Shown: piece after piece, positions 3,221-9,964 of the stretch
Layout: each line of letters starts with the position of its first letter
Position numbering within the stretch: the first letter of the stretch is position 1
Sequence record: DRR723986_1328
Strand: one strand, 5' to 3'
Length of the DNA: 20,969 nt
The notes under the pieces: model-generated
The model's input: only the letters and a program-made list of their open reading frames with translations
Databases searched by the model: none
Told to the model about the DNA's origin: nothing
Program-made: the position numbers and the translations under genes

Positions 3221-4816
3221 TCAGGCCACGTTGGCTTTCATCAGCGCGAATGTAATGGAGTCGACCAGGGCCTGGAAAGAGGCGTCGACGATGTTGGAGG
3301 ATACCCCGATCGTGAACCAGCGCCGGTGCGTGACTGTGTCCTGGCTTTCGATCAGAACGCGCGTGACAGCGCCCGTGCCACCATTGAGGATGCGCACCTT
3401 ATAGTCAATCAGTTCCAGGCCGTCGATGGCAGACTGGTATTTGCCCAGATCCTTTCGCAGTGCCATGTCCAGCGCATTGACCGGGCCGTTGCCTTCAGCA
3501 ACCGACATTCGGGTTTCGCCGTCGATATCGACCTTCACCACGGCTTCCGAAACCGTGACCAGATCGCCGATTGCGTTAAACCGGCGTTCCACCATCACGC
3601 GGAAGGATTCAACTGCGAAGTAACGCGGCACCTCGCCCAATTCCCGGCGCGCAAGCAACTCGAACGACGCGTCGGCGGCCTCGTAGGCATAGCCTTCGGC
3701 TTCCCGTTCCTTGACCTTCGCCAACAGTAGGTCAAGACGCGGATCTGACTTGTCGACTTCGATGCCCACCCGGGCCAACTCTCCCAGAAGGTTGCTCTTG
3801 CCGGCCTGGTCGGACACCAGCACCCGCCGCTGGTTGCCGACACTTTCCGGTGTAACGTGTTCATAGGTCTGCGGATCCTTCAGGATCGCGGAGGCATGAA
3901 TACCGGCCTTTGTGGCGAAGGCGGTTTCGCCCACGTAGGGGGCCTGCCTGTCCGGCGACCGGTTGAGGATTTCATCGAACGCATGGGAAATTGAGGTGAT
4001 CTCTTTCAACTGAGCGTCGCTGACACCGATTTCGAACCGATCGGAGAATGCCGGTTTCAGCTTAAGTGTCGGGATCAGGGTGATGAGGTTGGCGTTGCCG
4101 CAGCGCTCACCCAGCCCGTTCAAGGTTCCCTGGATCTGCCTTACGCCGGCATCCACTGCCGCCAGTGAGTTGGCGACCGCGTGACCGGTGTCATCGTGGG
4201 TGTGGATGCCGAGATGCGTTCCGGGAACAACCTCCTGCACCTTGGTGACGATGTCGAAGATCTCATCGGGCAGCGTGCCGCCGTTGGTGTCACACAGAAC
4301 GATCCACCGCGCGCCTGCATGGTATGCCGTGCGGGCACAATTGAGCGCGTATTCCGGATTGGCCTTGAAGCCATCGAAGAAATGCTCGCAGTCGATCATC
4401 GCTTCCTTGCCGGCAGCAACGGCTGCGGTAACGGTCTCGTAGATCGAATCGAGGTTTTCCTCGTTGCTGCAACCAAGCGCGACCCGGACATGGTAGTCCC
4501 ATGCCTTGGCCACGAAACAGCAGGCATCGGAACTTGCGGACAGCACGTCCTGAAGCCCCGGATCGTTCGCAGCCGAGCGGCCTGCGCGCTTGGTCATGCC
4601 AAACGCGGTGAACGTTGCCTTGCGCGTCCGCTTTTCACTGAAGAACTCACTGTCGGTCGGGTTGGCACCCGGATAGCCACCTTCGATGTAATCGACGCCA
4701 AGCCGCTCCAGAAGTTCGGCAACCACAACCTTCTCGTTGACAGAGAAGTCGACCCCGCTGGTCTGGGCGCCGTCACGCAATGTCGTGTCGAAAAGAAAAA
4801 GCCGTTCCTTGGTCAT
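3221..4816 (-). CDS. cimA: Citramalate synthase (LeuA-related DRE-TIM metallolyase; threonine-independent Ile pathway)
   Basis: DTTLRDGAQ, YIEGGYPGANP, EHFFDGFK, CDTNGG, GIHTHDD, GERCGNANL and a C-terminal regulatory domain (GNGPVNALD, DYKVRIL, TRVLIES). The GANP and EHFFDG motifs fit the CimA clade rather than LeuA. Confidence 0.9.
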   Translation of the reverse strand: MTKERLFLFDTTLRDGAQTSGVDFSVNEKVVVAELLERLGVDYIEGGYPGANPTDSEFFSEKRTRKATFTAFGMTKRAGRSAANDPGLQDVLSASSDACCFVAKAWDYHVRVALGCSNEENLDSIYETVTAAVAAGKEAMIDCEHFFDGFKANPEYALNCARTAYHAGARWIVLCDTNGGTLPDEIFDIVTKVQEVVPGTHLGIHTHDDTGHAVANSLAAVDAGVRQIQGTLNGLGERCGNANLITLIPTLKLKPAFSDRFEIGVSDAQLKEITSISHAFDEILNRSPDRQAPYVGETAFATKAGIHASAILKDPQTYEHVTPESVGNQRRVLVSDQAGKSNLLGELARVGIEVDKSDPRLDLLLAKVKEREAEGYAYEAADASFELLARRELGEVPRYFAVESFRVMVERRFNAIGDLVTVSEAVVKVDIDGETRMSVAEGNGPVNALDMALRKDLGKYQSAIDGLELIDYKVRILNGGTGAVTRVLIESQDTVTHRRWFTIGVSSNIVDASFQALVDSITFALMKANVA

Positions 4817-4848: not shown

Positions 4849-5346
4849 TTATTCGTTGTCATTTGCCCCGGTGCGAACCGGTGGCCAGGTTTCCGTGTCG
4901 TGATCGGGGTGCTGGAACGAAACGAGCGACGCCAGAAAAGGCGCTGCCTCCATATCGTCTTCCGTCACCCTTTCGGGAATTTGAGCCATGCTGTCGGCAT
5001 AAGGCAGCTTTGCCTCGACGCCGAACTGGATGCTGGGCGGGATCTGCGATGGATGGTCAAAGGCCCCGATGGCCAGTGCAATGCCATCCGGCGCTTCATA
5101 GGTCAGCGGCGTACCGCATTCGGCGCAAAAGCCCCGGGTTGCGTGATTGGAACTCTGGAAGTGCTTCAACGATCCACGTGTCCAGACAAGCCTGGATGTT
5201 TCAGGAACACTGACCAGTGGCGCGTAAAAGCCACCAAAGGCCTTCTGGCACATGCGGCAATGACAAATGGAAGCCTCGCCCAATGGCCCTTCCACCTTGA
5301 ACCGCAAGGCACCGCACTGACAGCCTCCGGTATGGATCTCCGTCAT
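4849..5346 (-). CDS. GFA family (glutathione-dependent formaldehyde-activating / CENP-V-like) zinc protein
   Basis: GGCQCGALRF, CHCRMCQKA and RGFCAECGTPL. The ATG at 5346 overlaps the upstream stop codon (ATGA). Confidence 0.9.
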   Translation of the reverse strand: MTEIHTGGCQCGALRFKVEGPLGEASICHCRMCQKAFGGFYAPLVSVPETSRLVWTRGSLKHFQSSNHATRGFCAECGTPLTYEAPDGIALAIGAFDHPSQIPPSIQFGVEAKLPYADSMAQIPERVTEDDMEAAPFLASLVSFQHPDHDTETWPPVRTGANDNE

Positions 5347-5837
5347 CCGCCCCTCACTTCCCAATGATCCGTGTCATGATCGGGATGCTGATTGTTGGTT
5401 GCCGTGACATCATTGATCCCACCTGGCAGGTCGTCCCGATTTGACTGCGTTTCGTTCAGTTCGAAAAGATGCCCATAGAATGACACTCGCCCCTCGACAC
5501 CGGACTGTTCAACCGGCGTGACCGCGGCGACATCGTCCAGGCTGCCATGGGTAAAGGAAATGTGGTCGTCGCCAATCGTATCAAAGGCCAGAGGCGTGCC
5601 GCAGGTTCCACAGAAACCCCGGCGGACAGGCTTGGAAGAGTGGAACCAGGAGGGTTCGCCGCGGGTCCATTCAAAATCGGACTTCGCAGCACCGATCAAC
5701 GGCAGAAAGAAATTCCCCGATGCCTTCTGGCACATGCGGCAATGACACAGATGCGGATGACCGACCTCTCCCGTCACCTGGTAACGCACGGCGCCGCACT
5801 GGCAACCGCCGCTCAGCCTTTGAACAGTATCGCCCAT
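5343..5837 (-). CDS. GFA family zinc protein (tandem paralog)
   Basis: GGCQCGAVRY, CHCRMCQKA and RGFCGTCGTPL. The ATG at 5837 overlaps the DUF559 stop (TGATG), with a GGAGA SD upstream. Confidence 0.9.
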   Translation of the reverse strand: MGDTVQRLSGGCQCGAVRYQVTGEVGHPHLCHCRMCQKASGNFFLPLIGAAKSDFEWTRGEPSWFHSSKPVRRGFCGTCGTPLAFDTIGDDHISFTHGSLDDVAAVTPVEQSGVEGRVSFYGHLFELNETQSNRDDLPGGINDVTATNNQHPDHDTDHWEVRGG

Positions 5838-6205
5838 CAGAAATTCTCCTTGCCACAAGCGTTCAGGATCTTGCGGCAGACACCGTCAAGGTCGTGCGTC
5901 ACCTCCGCATTCCAGAAGCGCAAGGTCGTCCAGCCGAGAGCCTGAAGCTTGCGGTCGCGTGCGATGTCACGCGCCTGGCCCTGCAGTTCTGCGTGCTGGG
6001 ATCCGTCCAGTTCCACGATCAAGCGATGAGCAGGTGCCGCGAAATCGACAATGACCCCTTCGATCGGCATCTGCCTGCGAAAGGAAATCCCCTCCAATCG
6101 ATGCGCCCGGATCACTTGCCAGAGCTTCTTTTCAGCGTCCGTCATTTGCGAACGCAGGCGTTTGGCGTTGGATCTGAGTTGCTTGGAAACTGTCCGGTGC
6201 GGCAT
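5837..6205 (-). CDS. DUF559 (Vsr-like, PD-(D/E)xK) endonuclease domain protein, 122 aa
   Basis: LRSQMTDAEKKLW, FRRQMPI...IVDF, IVELDGSQH and RD..RD..L...GW..LRFWN. ATG at 6205 is preceded by an AAGAGGT SD. The frame is also open upstream to GTG 6505. Confidence 0.88.
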   Translation of the reverse strand: MPHRTVSKQLRSNAKRLRSQMTDAEKKLWQVIRAHRLEGISFRRQMPIEGVIVDFAAPAHRLIVELDGSQHAELQGQARDIARDRKLQALGWTTLRFWNAEVTHDLDGVCRKILNACGKENF

Positions 6206-6256
6206 GTAGCGACCTCTTAGCGATAGCCTGAAACCAGTGTTTGTTACACAAGCTGT

Positions 6257-6306
6257 ATACCCCCCTCTGTCCGCTTGCGCGGACATCTCCCCCTCAAGGG
6301 GGGAGA
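6257..6306. repeat. REP-like double-hairpin palindromic element, left copy
   Basis: ATACCCCCCTCTGTCC start; hairpin TGTCCGC-ttgc-GCGGACA (6268-6285); hairpin TCTCCCCCT-caa-GGGGGGAGA (6286-6306). Confidence 0.85.
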
Positions 6307-6428
6307 CCGGAGCATGCGGGCTGATTTGAGAAAACTCATACAGCTTTGGAGAGGTCTCCTCCCTGAGCAGAACTCCGGTCTTGCGCCATAGCCGGTTCAA
6401 AAATGCATGGCAGCGCGGCATACGCCCC

Positions 6429-6477
6429 TCTCCCCCCTTGCAGGGGAGATCTTCCCATAGGGGACAGAGGGGGGTAT
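6429..6477. repeat. REP-like double-hairpin palindromic element, right copy (inverted relative to the left copy)
   Basis: The reverse complement reads ATACCCCCCTCTGTCC-cctatgggaag-ATCTCCCCtgCAAGGGGGGAGA. It has a 16-nt exact match to the left copy and a near-identical second hairpin. Confidence 0.85.
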
Positions 6478-6501
6478 CCCGTCTTTCCGCCTGGTACCGT
6501 C

Positions 6502-7917
6502 TCACCGCTTGACTTCCCAGGTTGTCACGCGGGCACCGGTTTCTGAGTCTTTTGAATCCTTTAGAAGAATTCCCTGAGACGTCAGTTCATCGCGGATCGC
6601 GTCAGCTTCGGCCCAGTTCTTGGCATTGAGGGCCTCCAGGCGTTTTTCGATGGCTGCCAAAATGCCGGCCTCATCAACGCCAGACAAATCCGCCTTGACC
6701 GGATGAACGCCGAGGATCGCGGCAGATGCCGAGTAAACATCCAGTTTGGCAGGGTCCTTGGAAGCCTCGACGGCGAGCGCGTGGAGCGCCTGAATGGCGC
6801 CTGCGGTGTTCAGGTCGTCCAAAAGGGCATCAAGCACCTCGGCGGCAGGGGCCGCATCCGTTTCGACCGGATCCGGCCAACGGGCCAGGAGGTTTTCCGC
6901 TTCTTCAAGCTTGCGTTTGGAGAAGTCGATCGGCTCTCGATAGTTGGTCATCAACATGGCAAGGCGCAGCACTTCGCCCGGCCACATGCGGCCGCCGAAA
7001 CTGTCCGTTTCCAGAAGCTCCTGAATGGTGAAGAAGTTGCCCTCGGACTTGGACATCTTCCGGCCTTCCACCTGCAGGAAGCCGTTGTGCATCCAGTAGT
7101 TGGCCATGACCTTGGTGCCATGAGCGCAGCGGGACTGGGCGATTTCGTTTTCGTGGTGCGGGAAGATAAGGTCCAGCCCGCCGCCGTGAATGTCGAACAC
7201 TTCACCCAGATGGTGCGCGCTCATGACAGAGCACTCGATGTGCCAGCCCGGACGCCCCCTGCCCCACGGGCTGTCCCAGCCGGGCTCTTCTTCAGAAGAC
7301 AGTTTCCAGAGCACGAAATCTCCGGGGTTCTTCTTGTGAGCATCAACCGCAATGCGAGCCCCGGCTAGCTGCTCGTCCAGCTTCCTCTTTGACAGGCCGC
7401 CGTAGTCGGGCATGGACTGGGTGTCGAATAGAACTTCACCGCCCGCCTGATAGGCGTGTCCCTTTTCGATCAGCGCCGCGATCATCTCGACCATGCCGCT
7501 GATATGCTGTGTCGCCCGAGGCTCGATGCTCGGCTCCAGCACACCCAGAGACCTGATGTCCTTATGGAACTGGTCCGCAGTCTTCTGCGTCACCTGGGCA
7601 ATGGCTTCATTGAGCGACAGATCGGGAAAGTCACGAAGTGCGCGTGCGTTGATCTTGTCGTCAACGTCAGTGATGTTGCGCGCATAGGTGACGTGGTCGG
7701 CACCATAAAGATGGCGCAGAAGCCGGAAGAGCACATCGAAGACGATGACCGGTCGCGCGTTACCGATGTGGGCAAAGTCATAGACGGTCGGTCCGCAGAC
7801 GTAGAGACGCACATTCCCGTCATCGATCGCCCGGAAGTCCTCCTTCTGGCGCGTCAATGTGTTGGTGAGCTTCAAGCCCTTGAAAGTGCCGGATTTCTCT
7901 GTCTCAGCGGCGCTCAT
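6502..7917 (-). CDS. cysS: Cysteine--tRNA ligase
   Basis: [17 protein letters not shown] (HIGH motif), [38 protein letters not shown] and KMSKS. SD AGGAG at 7928-7932. Confidence 0.98.
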
Positions 7918-8054
7918 GTCAAACGGTCTCCTGGCCGGCTGGCCGGGCGGTCCGTCTCAGAGGAAATTTTGCCAAGAGGGAACGGCCACAGCCAGCGGTG
8001 TCGCTAGCTGCAAATAATGGTGATCGAAATGATGTTCCGTGTGGCCGTCATCAT
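7918..8054 (-). promoter_or_regulatory. Candidate ribosome-mediated (translational) attenuator 5' leader of the cysS...cimA operon
   Basis: Contains the leader ORF and three alternative helices: 8048-8040 with 7990-7982 (9 bp); 7995-7983 with 7945-7931 (13 bp, 2-nt bulge); 7978-7971 with 7935-7928 (8 bp, covers the SD). No U-tract terminator. Confidence 0.72.
8004..8054 (-). CDS. Leader peptide MMTATRNIISITIICS (16 aa; 5 Ile, 3 Thr, 1 Cys)
   Basis: Read directly from the minus strand: ATG ATG ACG GCC ACA CGG AAC ATC ATT TCG ATC ACC ATT ATT TGC AGC TAG. It ends 86 nt before the cysS ATG. Five of codons 8-14 are Ile. Confidence 0.75.
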   Translation of the reverse strand: MMTATRNIISITIICS

Positions 8055-8061
8055 GGAGCGC

Positions 8062-8092
8062 TTTATGGACCGGAAAACAGAACCCGGTCAAG
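8062..8092 (-). promoter_or_regulatory. Sigma70-type promoter predicted to start transcription at the leader-peptide ATG (leaderless)
   Basis: Minus strand: CTTGACC (8092-8086), N18, CATAAA (8067-8062), 7 nt, ATG (8054). No SD precedes the ATG. Confidence 0.6.
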
Positions 8093-8293
8093 GCTGCAGT
8101 TGCCGCTGAAACGCCAATTTCCGTGCCTTGTGGCCGCAACGCGTCACTCCCACGAGCGATAACGGATCGCGCGCTTTTCCTGTTGCGGCAACAAACGGGA
8201 TCGGCTTTGCAATGGCAAGGAAGCTTAACGCAGTTCAATTATGCGCAAGATGCACTAGACTTTCCCCGTTGGGAATCAGAGGGGGTATTTCCG

Positions 8294-9964
8294 ATGGGAA
8301 TATTTTGCACGTGCCGTAACAGACATCTTGGTCTTCTTTTCACGCTGGCAGCGTTTTTGTCCGGACCACTTTCGGCACCATATGTCCAGGCACAAACCGC
8401 GGCACCGGCGACCAGCGAGACCCAGGTCGTTCCGCCCCCTGTTTTCAAGGAACCGCAGACGCCGATCGCCAGGGCCATTCAGGCGCAAGTTTCTACGAAA
8501 CTGCCCGAAGGTCTTGCACTCTATTATGGCGAACGCGCTTTCGCACCGGTCTGGTTCAACGAGAATGGCCTGACGGAAGATGCTCATCTGACCATTGCCG
8601 CCATGGCGGCGGCGAACGACCACGCACTCAACCCCAACAATTACGATCCCCTCGGCTTCATAAAGCGTTCGGAAACTTCCCAGAGCGAGCAGGAATGGGC
8701 CCAGTTCGATCTGGACCTGTCCGTACAGTTCCTGCGCTATGCGACCCACCTCTCCTCCGGCCGCGTTCAACCCAACAAGGTCAACAAGGCGCTGAACGTG
8801 TTTCCGGATCGGCCTGATCCGAAAATGCTTTTTGAAAATGCCGAACAGGCCGTGGACTTCGGGGCCTTTCTGGAAAGCCTCGCACCCCAGACCGACAATT
8901 ACGCGCGCCTGAAGCGGCGCCTTGCCCAATACCGGGAGAAGGCTGCTGCCGGCGGCTTTACTCAGGTTCCGGATGGTGAGGTTCTGAAACCGGGTATGAG
9001 CGATCCGCGCCTGGAGGTTTTGCGAACCCGGCTCATGGAAGAAGACATTGTCGTTGCCGGAGATCACACCGGTGATGTCTATGACGGCGCCCTGGTGGAA
9101 GCCGTCAAGCTGTTCCAAGAGTACCACGGCCTTGAAACCGACGGTGTCATCGGCAAGGCGACAATTGCCCAGCTCAACATTCCGATCCAGGAAAAGCTCA
9201 TCCAGATGGAGCTCAACATGGAGCGGCGGCGCTGGATGCCGGATGATCCGGGACAGTTCTACGTCTTCGTCAATCTGGCAGACCAGAACCTGAAGGTGGT
9301 GCGTGACGGAAAGACCATTCACACGGCGCGGGTCGTTGTAGGCAAGCCCTACCACGCAACGCCAGTGTTTTCCGACCGGCTGGAATATGTGGAAATCAAC
9401 CCGTACTGGAACGTGCCCTATTCCATCGCGACGAAGGAGTATCTGCCGAAACTCAAGCAGAACCCCACGGCGCTCAGCAACAAGAGCATCCGGATCTTCC
9501 AGGAAGGCAACGAGGTCGCGCCGACACAGGTTGCCTGGAACAGCTATTCCGGTGGCAATTTCCCGTTCCGGCTGCGCCAGGACCCGGGTGAGGACAATGC
9601 GCTTGGTCGCATCAAATTCATGTTCCCCAACCAGTTCAACATCTACATTCACGACACCCCGTCGAAATCCCTGTTCACCAGAGCGGAGCGCGCCTTCAGC
9701 CACGGCTGCATTCGCGTATCGGATCCCTTTGCCCTGGCGGACGTTCTTCTGGTCGATTCCGACGGCACTCCGGGAAAATGGGAAGCCATTCGCGACAGCG
9801 GCGAGCGTACGGTCGTCAAAACCAAGGTCGAAATCGACGTGCACCTCACCTACCTGACCGCGTGGATGAACAAGGACGGATCAACACATTTCAGAAAAGA
9901 CATCTACGACCGCGACAAGGTGCTGCTGGAAGCGCTACGCAGAGCGATGACAGAGAACCTCTAG
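8294..9964 (+). CDS. L,D-transpeptidase (YcbB/LdtD-like: scaffold, peptidoglycan-binding and YkuD domains)
   Basis: Signal peptide ending VQA-Q; PG-binding motif AVKLFQ.YHGL..DG.IG..T; VVVGK...TP, NPYWNVP.SI, NALGRIKFMFPN and catalytic IYIHDTP...SHGCIRV. GAGGGGG SD precedes ATG 8294. Confidence 0.93.
   Translation: MGIFCTCRNRHLGLLFTLAAFLSGPLSAPYVQAQTAAPATSETQVVPPPVFKEPQTPIARAIQAQVSTKLPEGLALYYGERAFAPVWFNENGLTEDAHLTIAAMAAANDHALNPNNYDPLGFIKRSETSQSEQEWAQFDLDLSVQFLRYATHLSSGRVQPNKVNKALNVFPDRPDPKMLFENAEQAVDFGAFLESLAPQTDNYARLKRRLAQYREKAAAGGFTQVPDGEVLKPGMSDPRLEVLRTRLMEEDIVVAGDHTGDVYDGALVEAVKLFQEYHGLETDGVIGKATIAQLNIPIQEKLIQMELNMERRRWMPDDPGQFYVFVNLADQNLKVVRDGKTIHTARVVVGKPYHATPVFSDRLEYVEINPYWNVPYSIATKEYLPKLKQNPTALSNKSIRIFQEGNEVAPTQVAWNSYSGGNFPFRLRQDPGEDNALGRIKFMFPNQFNIYIHDTPSKSLFTRAERAFSHGCIRVSDPFALADVLLVDSDGTPGKWEAIRDSGERTVVKTKVEIDVHLTYLTAWMNKDGSTHFRKDIYDRDKVLLEALRRAMTENL

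Follow-up and report, generated by a model that had tools for sequence, protein, structure and literature searches.

We propose that a short open reading frame (sORF) lying upstream of cysS is probably the leader peptide of a cysS-(DUF559-GFA-GFA)-cimA transcript in which the supply of isoleucine and cysteine would set ribosome-mediated attenuation, a reading built on comparison of sequences. The sORF was found in the window, that is, the whole 20,969-nucleotide stretch of DNA that was analyzed (record DRR723986_1328), and its conservation, codon bias, covarying RNA helices, alternative pairing, and linkage to cimA are presented in turn below, together with the other explanations on which these data bear.

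The Ile/Cys-rich sORF and its conservation

The sORF runs from 8054 to 8004 on the minus strand, like cysS, and encodes MMTATRNIISITIICS* with the codons ATG ATG ACG GCC ACA CGG AAC ATC ATT TCG ATC ACC ATT ATT TGC AGC TAG. An earlier note on this DNA, which named no strand, had described a 16-codon ORF ending 86 nt before cysS, with five Ile codons, three of them ATT, and one Cys codon, and all of these counts match the sequence: there are three ATT and two ATC codons, the Cys codon is TGC at codon 15, and the stop codon ends at 8004, leaving a gap of 86 nt to the cysS ATG at 7917. The cysS and cimA identities given in the same note were confirmed by profile matches. The features of the putative operon are as follows.

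8004..8054, minus strand: leader sORF MMTATRNIISITIICS*, a candidate leaderless ORF, called from sequence, conservation, and codon bias
6502..7917, minus strand: cysS, cysteine--tRNA ligase, 471 amino acids (PF01406, 3e-113; TIGR00435, 448.6 bits)
5837..6505, minus strand: DUF559 gene (domain match), with a 4-nt overlap with the cysS stop
5858..5343 and 5364..4849, minus strand: two tandem GFA-family genes (domain matches), their ends overlapping
3221..4816, minus strand: cimA, (R)-citramalate synthase (TIGR00977, 620.6 bits against a cut-off of 450)

The assignment of cimA was further checked with the LeuA models, all of which scored under their own cut-offs (best LeuA score, 269.3 versus 517). 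The order of genes after cysS, all on the same strand, is DUF559, GFA, GFA, cimA, and rarD, with overlaps or gaps of no more than 40 nt. Among 10 other families that were sampled, 5 likewise had a GFA-family gene (PF04828) in the interval from cysS to cimA (loci L033, L036, L047, L065, and L087), and 2 had a DUF559 gene there; the GFA gene, with its link to thiol chemistry, may be a standard component of the operon.

The composition of the sORF was compared with that of all ATG sORFs of 8 to 35 codons on both strands of the whole window (n = 242), and it was the only one, with either ATG taken as the start, to hold 6 Ile plus Cys within 10 residues. Another Ile-rich sORF, MMSRQPTISIPIMTRIIGK (5 Ile, no Cys), was observed at 5354-5413 on the minus strand, where the two GFA genes meet but out of frame with them, and is probably due to chance.

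The closest named relatives of the source of the window were Roseibium, and the sORF was kept in 24/24 loci of this genus with slight variation, I, S, and T interchanging at codons 10 to 13. The order was then sampled through 70 further genomes from about 40 families, taking cysS together with flanks of 700 nt on the upstream and 6 kb on the downstream side and scoring an sORF where an ATG-initiated frame had three or more Ile and one or more Cys within a 10-residue span and lay no more than 300 nt upstream of cysS. Among these 70 loci from other families, an Ile+Cys sORF was present in 62 and an Ile-only sORF in 2, with no sORF in the remaining 6. As a control, the antisense strand of these 70 loci gave 2 Ile+Cys, 2 Ile-only, and 4 Cys-only sORFs, with none at the other 62. 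An Ile/Cys-rich sORF was also found in 69 of 80 named records, including Rhizobium (MKTVICIICRKIIR), Mesorhizobium (MKTSFAICGICIIG), Bradyrhizobium (MNGLLAICAICEITS), and Devosia (MKTKCTIIACIITC). Conservation of such an ORF before cysS across the order, which the earlier note had put forward as a check, was thus observed in the genus, in the order, and among the named records. Taken together, the antisense and window controls exclude a chance origin of the sORF.

The 75 distinct peptides ranged in length from 13 to 31 residues and were composed of 26.0% Ile and 9.3% Cys; in the CysS proteins of the same loci, Ile made up 4.7% and Cys 1.1%. All but one of the 75 had three or more Ile and one or more Cys (74/75; median, 5 Ile and 2 Cys). 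Ile codons in the sORFs were 221 ATT, 121 ATC, and 3 ATA, i.e., 64% ATT, and those in cysS were 267 ATT, 1237 ATC, and 38 ATA, so that ATT is rare (17%) in the synthetase gene itself. The enrichment was strongest near the C terminus, with Ile at position -3 in 75/75 peptides and at position -4 in 61/75, and with Ile or Cys at position -2 in 60/75. Ile and Cys traded positions from family to family, and both the N-terminal half and the length were free to vary. What has been kept is composition without sequence or length, which is the signature of regulatory leader peptides. Since the codon at position -3 was ATT in 72/75, the synonymous sites give no clean coding signal, and a constraint at the RNA level is also possible.

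These data also bear on the notion that the sORF encodes a functional hydrophobic micropeptide or is a chance ORF. The peptide is indeed short and hydrophobic, as a micropeptide would be, but its N-terminal half and its length (13 to 31 residues) vary, and only the codon composition, the stop codon context, and the RNA pairing are kept; with chance ruled out by the two controls, we regard this explanation as having practically no likelihood.

Association of the leader with cimA

Linkage was scored where a CimA homologue (TIGR00977) was encoded on the cysS strand no more than 6.5 kb downstream of cysS. By this measure cimA was linked in 66/70 order loci and in 38/60 loci from other families of the class, counts that come from kin genomes and represent few independent losses. 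Outside the order, the gap between cysS and cimA was no more than 150 nt in 28 of the 38 linked loci, and the genes overlapped by 1 or 4 nt in 13 of the 38; inside the order, small genes were inserted and the median gap was 668 nt.

Of the Ile+Cys sORFs, 69/70 were at cimA-linked loci. The sole unlinked case, G315, came from a 100%-complete genome with no CimA match, and its leader ends ...ICREIKS, compared with ...ICREIIS in a sister genome, the terminal Ile-Ile having become Ile-Lys. The remaining three order genomes without an adjacent CimA had no leader either, and searches of these three genomes for CimA returned nothing or only a 33%-identical LeuA-like match. In another alphaproteobacterial order, no cimA was found within 1.5 kb of cysS in 8/8 genomes, and three of the eight bore sORFs with a run of Cys (CC, CCC, or CCCLC) and zero Ile. 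The idea in the earlier note that Ile enrichment should be lost where cimA is unlinked agrees with this distribution, the lone exception having lost its Ile-Ile, with the qualification that the unlinked cases are few and the relatives not independent. The sORF was absent from some loci in which cimA is linked, namely three order loci (e.g., G027) and 24 of the 38 linked loci in other orders, indicating that linkage does not require the leader.

The upstream regions of stand-alone cimA genes were inspected in six genomes of other orders, and no convincing Ile leader was found. The best of the six was a 9-codon frame, MLAPLIITG, ending 13 nt before the cimA start at L265, which may be a minimal Ile leader. 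A further set of candidates, the Cys-only "CxCxC" leaders at L122, L137, L140, and L151, was rejected, as these were judged from the flanking sequence to be artefacts produced by the out-of-frame 3' end of an upstream gltX-like gene. Such a gene, called by eye from its C-terminal motif, was found directly before cysS in several other alphaproteobacterial lineages (L122, L137, L140, L151, L254, L258, L259, and L261).

With both the composition and the distribution of the leaders in hand, we considered whether only one amino acid might be sensed, either Cys, with the Ile codons serving as slow A/U-rich spacers, or Ile on behalf of cimA, with Cys incidental. The single Cys codon in the genus of the window, an order leader lacking Cys altogether (L081), the retention of AUUAUU at the nucleotide level, and the fact that the published cysS uORFs hold Cys codons only are all compatible with this explanation. 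However, 74/75 peptides have at least 3 Ile together with at least 1 Cys, and other A/U-rich codons are not enriched (Lys, 2.0%; Phe, 1.2%; Asn, 3.5%). Furthermore, Ile-rich leaders were seen only where cimA is, or recently was, linked, and Ile-free Cys-run leaders were seen where it is unlinked. Sensing of a single amino acid is improbable. The dual Ile/Cys sensor suggested in the earlier note instead draws support from comparison, through the conserved Ile+Cys sORF and its association with cimA, and would remain the preferred reading of the leader.

Predicted 5' end and folding of the leader RNA

Two promoter-like boxes precede the sORF, and a Shine-Dalgarno sequence precedes cysS.

8087..8092, minus strand: -35-like box CTTGAC, invariant in the genus alignment
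8063..8068, minus strand: -10-like box CCATAA, kept in the greater part of the genus, with 18 nt separating it from CTTGAC and 8 nt from the sORF ATG
7927..7932, minus strand: cysS Shine-Dalgarno AGGAGA, read from the sequence and invariant in the genus

TTGAC was found 35 to 39 nt ahead of the sORF ATG in 92/105 loci, and the stretch between the -10-like box and the ATG was constant in length (7 to 8 nt) and variable in sequence. This spacing places the predicted transcription start approximately at the sORF ATG, without room for a Shine-Dalgarno sequence, and the sORF is therefore probably leaderless, its transcript starting at or a few bases from the ATG. A simple consensus sigma-70 scan of the window leader called no promoter, and this result counts against the attenuator reading. 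RNA contigs covering cysS in two studies end at 8022 and 8039, just within the sORF, and those of the divergent gene begin at 8145 and 8214. As these are assembled contigs, in which uncovered parts are not counted and ends cannot be seen, and of which X8 and X9 span the intergenic region and may be DNA, the stops at 8022 and 8039 are only a weak hint, one that would fit a transcript beginning at the sORF. One contig reaches 7.7 kb downstream through cimA, which does not by itself prove a single transcript. The divergent gene (8039-9964, plus strand) encodes an L,D-transpeptidase with Scaffold, PG_binding_1, and YkuD domains, and its start is probably the ATG near 8295 rather than the GTG at 8039.

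The leader was predicted to fold more stably than shuffled sequences (z = -3.06), and the following segments were defined from the fold and from comparison.

8040..8048, minus strand: segment A, ACGGCCACA, codons 3 to 5, the 5' strand of the closing helix, pairing with D in the minimum free energy (MFE) fold
8002..8010, minus strand: segment B, CAGCUAGCG, running from the third base of the Cys codon through the Ser and stop codons to 2 nt beyond, forming a 9-bp hairpin with C
7989..7997, minus strand: segment C, CGCUGGCUG, the 3' strand of the stop-codon hairpin, supported by the fold, the genus alignment, RNAalifold, and covariation
7982..7990, minus strand: segment D, UGUGGCCGU, the 3' strand of the closing helix, supported by the fold, cognate-pair tests, and covariation
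7974..7981, minus strand: pyrimidine tract UCCCUCUU after D, defined by composition over 72 leaders
7934..7954, minus strand: segment E, CGGACCGCCCGGCCAGCCGGC, an alternative partner of C+D, from duplex energies

In the predicted fold, the B:C hairpin, which contains the last codon and the stop, stacks on the A:D helix. The GCUGG in segment C is nearly invariant across the order, and a common architecture built from differing sequences was obtained in 14/14 families folded. The closing helix in particular changes from family to family, being formed by pairs such as ACGGCC:GGCCGU, AAAACCG:CGGUUUU, and ACGGAACC:GGUUCCGU. When 30 leaders were aligned with MAFFT and analyzed with RNAalifold, the stop-codon hairpin B:C was recovered and A:D was missed, as the register of A:D slides between families. 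A register-free test was therefore applied to 21 representatives of distinct D classes, in which cognate A:D pairs averaged -13.0 kcal/mol versus -10.0 +/- 0.5 kcal/mol for permuted pairs, with 0/20000 permutations as good.

A covariance model built from 20 leaders gave one match per locus in 59/76 sources, always at the sORF. In the resulting alignment of 59 leaders, which is fitted to the model and so favours the structure, 82.5% of cells pair versus 74.0 in shuffles, the figure for the B:C hairpin being 87.3%. Changes on both sides were seen in 14 of 16 pairs in this alignment, all 7 A:D pairs included, and the covariation score was 0.240 versus 0.121, with 0/500 shuffles as high and slid partners scoring 0.03 to 0.10. 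A remnant, CGCTAGCGCTGGCGG, resembling the B:C motif was observed upstream in L104/L111 (G027), where cimA follows cysS directly and no sORF was found; it looks like a decayed leader.

Another explanation would be that what is conserved is a structured cis-regulatory RNA to which a protein or ligand binds (e.g., in CysRS autoregulation), with the ORF incidental. Within the genus the leader is more conserved than cysS, segments B, C, and E are conserved in sequence and not merely in pairing, and the UGCA at the Cys codon may be read as including the tRNA-Cys anticodon triplet GCA. Against this, the distance from promoter to ATG, the location of the stop within B, and the Ile/Cys composition are all kept despite changing length and residue order. 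A search of Rfam 15 with the window leader likewise gave no family at E values up to 10 except three chance-level matches to eukaryotic or viral models, and 12 other loci gave nothing at gathering score. We therefore consider it very improbable that the RNA acts without regard to its ORF.

Segment E is predicted to compete with the closed fold. In the window, the C+D:E duplex has a calculated energy of -27.8 kcal/mol (z = -2.8), and over 45 leaders the mean was -25.1 versus -19.8 kcal/mol for shuffles, with z < -2 in 21/45. E sits 41 to 51 nt past the sORF stop in 36 of the 45 scored leaders. Its consensus is approximately GAACGCCCCGGCCAGC, and the sequence itself is conserved between families. 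Because E is complementary to C+D, the leader would be able to adopt two mutually exclusive folds.

The pyrimidine tract lies between D and E. Over 72 leaders, the 9 nt after D were 40% U versus 15% further on, and were 78% pyrimidine, yet only 16/72 leaders had at least 5 U in those 9 nt; a consensus scan of the window leader called no terminator. The tract is possibly a weak terminator U-tract or an anti-Shine-Dalgarno sequence. Involvement of Rho through a rut site was also considered and rejected, since the 55 nt after D were not C-enriched over G (C, 0.33; G, 0.27), equal to cysS coding sequence. The weakness of the tract and the negative terminator scan count against attenuation by transcription termination. 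So does the position of E: being transcribed after the tract, E cannot be a classical antiterminator for it.

An alternative is that the output is translational, such that a ribosome stalled on the sORF would free C+D to take E, which would otherwise help to hide the cysS ribosome binding site (RBS), with cimA following by coupling or polarity. E abuts the Shine-Dalgarno sequence, and a small hairpin extending into that sequence can form from the 3' half of E; C+D pairs strongly with E, and this pairing is conserved; by the time E is transcribed, it is too late to prevent termination at the tract; and the tract resembles an anti-Shine-Dalgarno sequence. Partition-function calculations did not reveal a consistent unmasking, however, the unpaired fraction of the RBS being 0.39 in the free leader versus 0.40 when the end of the sORF was masked (up in 19 and down in 9; n = 61) and 0.42 when all of it was masked (up in 19 and down in 10; n = 55; Wilcoxon P = 0.11). 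Moreover, a control acting on cysS only would not readily extend to cimA, since in the window three genes and a distance of 1.7 kb have to be bridged downstream. A translational output is accordingly judged unlikely, though it has more in its favor than the other alternatives raised above.

Proposed mechanism and comparison with known systems

With its enrichment in Ile and Cys codons, its predicted overlapping alternative folds, and its position 5' of the operon on the same strand, the leader has three of the attributes by which a leader-peptide attenuator is recognized. In the attenuation mechanism that we favor, a ribosome would load at the RNA 5' end without a Shine-Dalgarno sequence. When charged Ile-tRNA and Cys-tRNA are both ample, the ribosome would complete the sORF and depart, allowing the RNA to adopt the closed two-helix fold, with B:C stacked on A:D and the pyrimidine tract following. 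This fold would turn the operon off, most likely through transcription termination in the region of the tract. Under a shortage of either charged tRNA, the ribosome would stay on the last codons, melting B and holding A away from D; the freed C+D would pair with E, and RNA polymerase would run on into cysS and then cimA. The Cys codons would thereby report on the substrate of CysRS, and the Ile codons on the end product of the CimA pathway.

A more specific version of this mechanism may be considered. Because the closing helix joins the first codons to sequence beyond the stop, any ribosome on the sORF would block its closure. The leader could then act as a leaderless timer with the whole ORF in the loop, measuring the transit time over approximately seven Ile/Cys codons and so integrating two unrelated amino acids, and it would be ancient in the Hyphomicrobiales. 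We put this forward tentatively, as a possibility that is rather doubtful. If it were true, one device would co-regulate an aminoacyl-tRNA synthetase, a GFA thiol-chemistry gene, and the enzyme that opens the citramalate route to isoleucine. Later steps of the citramalate route to Ile use Fe-S enzymes, and for this reason the leader could couple sulfur or Fe-S status to Ile synthesis.

The Ile/Cys leader occurs in Rhizobium, Mesorhizobium, Bradyrhizobium, and Devosia and in many marine and soil relatives, and it would therefore be an unannotated regulator in much-studied symbionts. It would offer a functional reason for the old and widespread pairing of cysS and cimA in alphaproteobacteria, and it contributes a leader peptide that is probably leaderless and whose predicted closing helix is unusual in being nonlocal. 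Searches of the open literature, that is, the literature outside subscription papers and supplements, yielded no Ile/Cys leader, no cysS-cimA operon, and no composite leader in which codons for two unrelated amino acids would serve two different genes of a single operon.

Leader-peptide attenuators as such are textbook devices. The reading of several amino acids in one leader is familiar from the thr (Thr and Ile) and ilvGMEDA (Ile, Leu, and Val) leaders of Escherichia coli, and the control of a synthetase operon by a leader rich in the cognate amino acid is familiar from pheST and its pheM leader. The thr, ilv, and pheM leaders hold the amino acids of one pathway, have a Shine-Dalgarno sequence, and end in a canonical local terminator hairpin. 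Unlike thr and ilvGMEDA, the present leader would combine Cys with Ile, amino acids that have no metabolic relationship and that correspond to two different genes of the operon. In mycobacteria, leaderless polycysteine sORFs reportedly act as attenuators of downstream operon genes, as described by Canestrari et al. in 2020. The present sORF resembles these in its Cys codons and its probable leaderless start, but the mycobacterial sORFs precede cysteine biosynthesis genes, belong to Actinobacteria, and have Cys runs only.

Two published leaders precede cysS itself. In Deinococcus deserti, a leaderless 10-codon leader with Cys-Cys starts at a mapped transcription start site (de Groot et al. 2014; PMC4007540). 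Both it and the present leader carry Cys before cysS, and the leaderless start that was mapped there is predicted here; unlike the present leader, that of D. deserti, which belongs to another phylum, has no Ile and no link to cimA in the accessible part of the paper. The other is the uORFC-8-2 motif, for which the accessible part of its description lists 145 examples, all before cysS and all in Rhodobacterales; these have a tandem pair of Cys codons, as a rule at positions 14 and 15, and a clear U run, and ribosome-mediated attenuation was predicted for them (Brewer et al. 2021, RNA Biol; PMC8632094). The two share a short uORF just before an alphaproteobacterial cysS, with Cys codons near its end and within stems. 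They are separated here on the basis of that description, in the accessible part of which neither Ile nor cimA is mentioned, and individual examples of the motif may overlap with the present leaders. In the leaders analyzed here, Ile exceeds Cys (median, 5 versus 2), Cys is single or interleaved, and cimA is linked; in addition, unlike uORFC-8-2 as described in that text, they belong to the Hyphomicrobiales/Rhizobiales, have a closing helix formed from the 5' end of the sORF, and are followed by a weak U tract.
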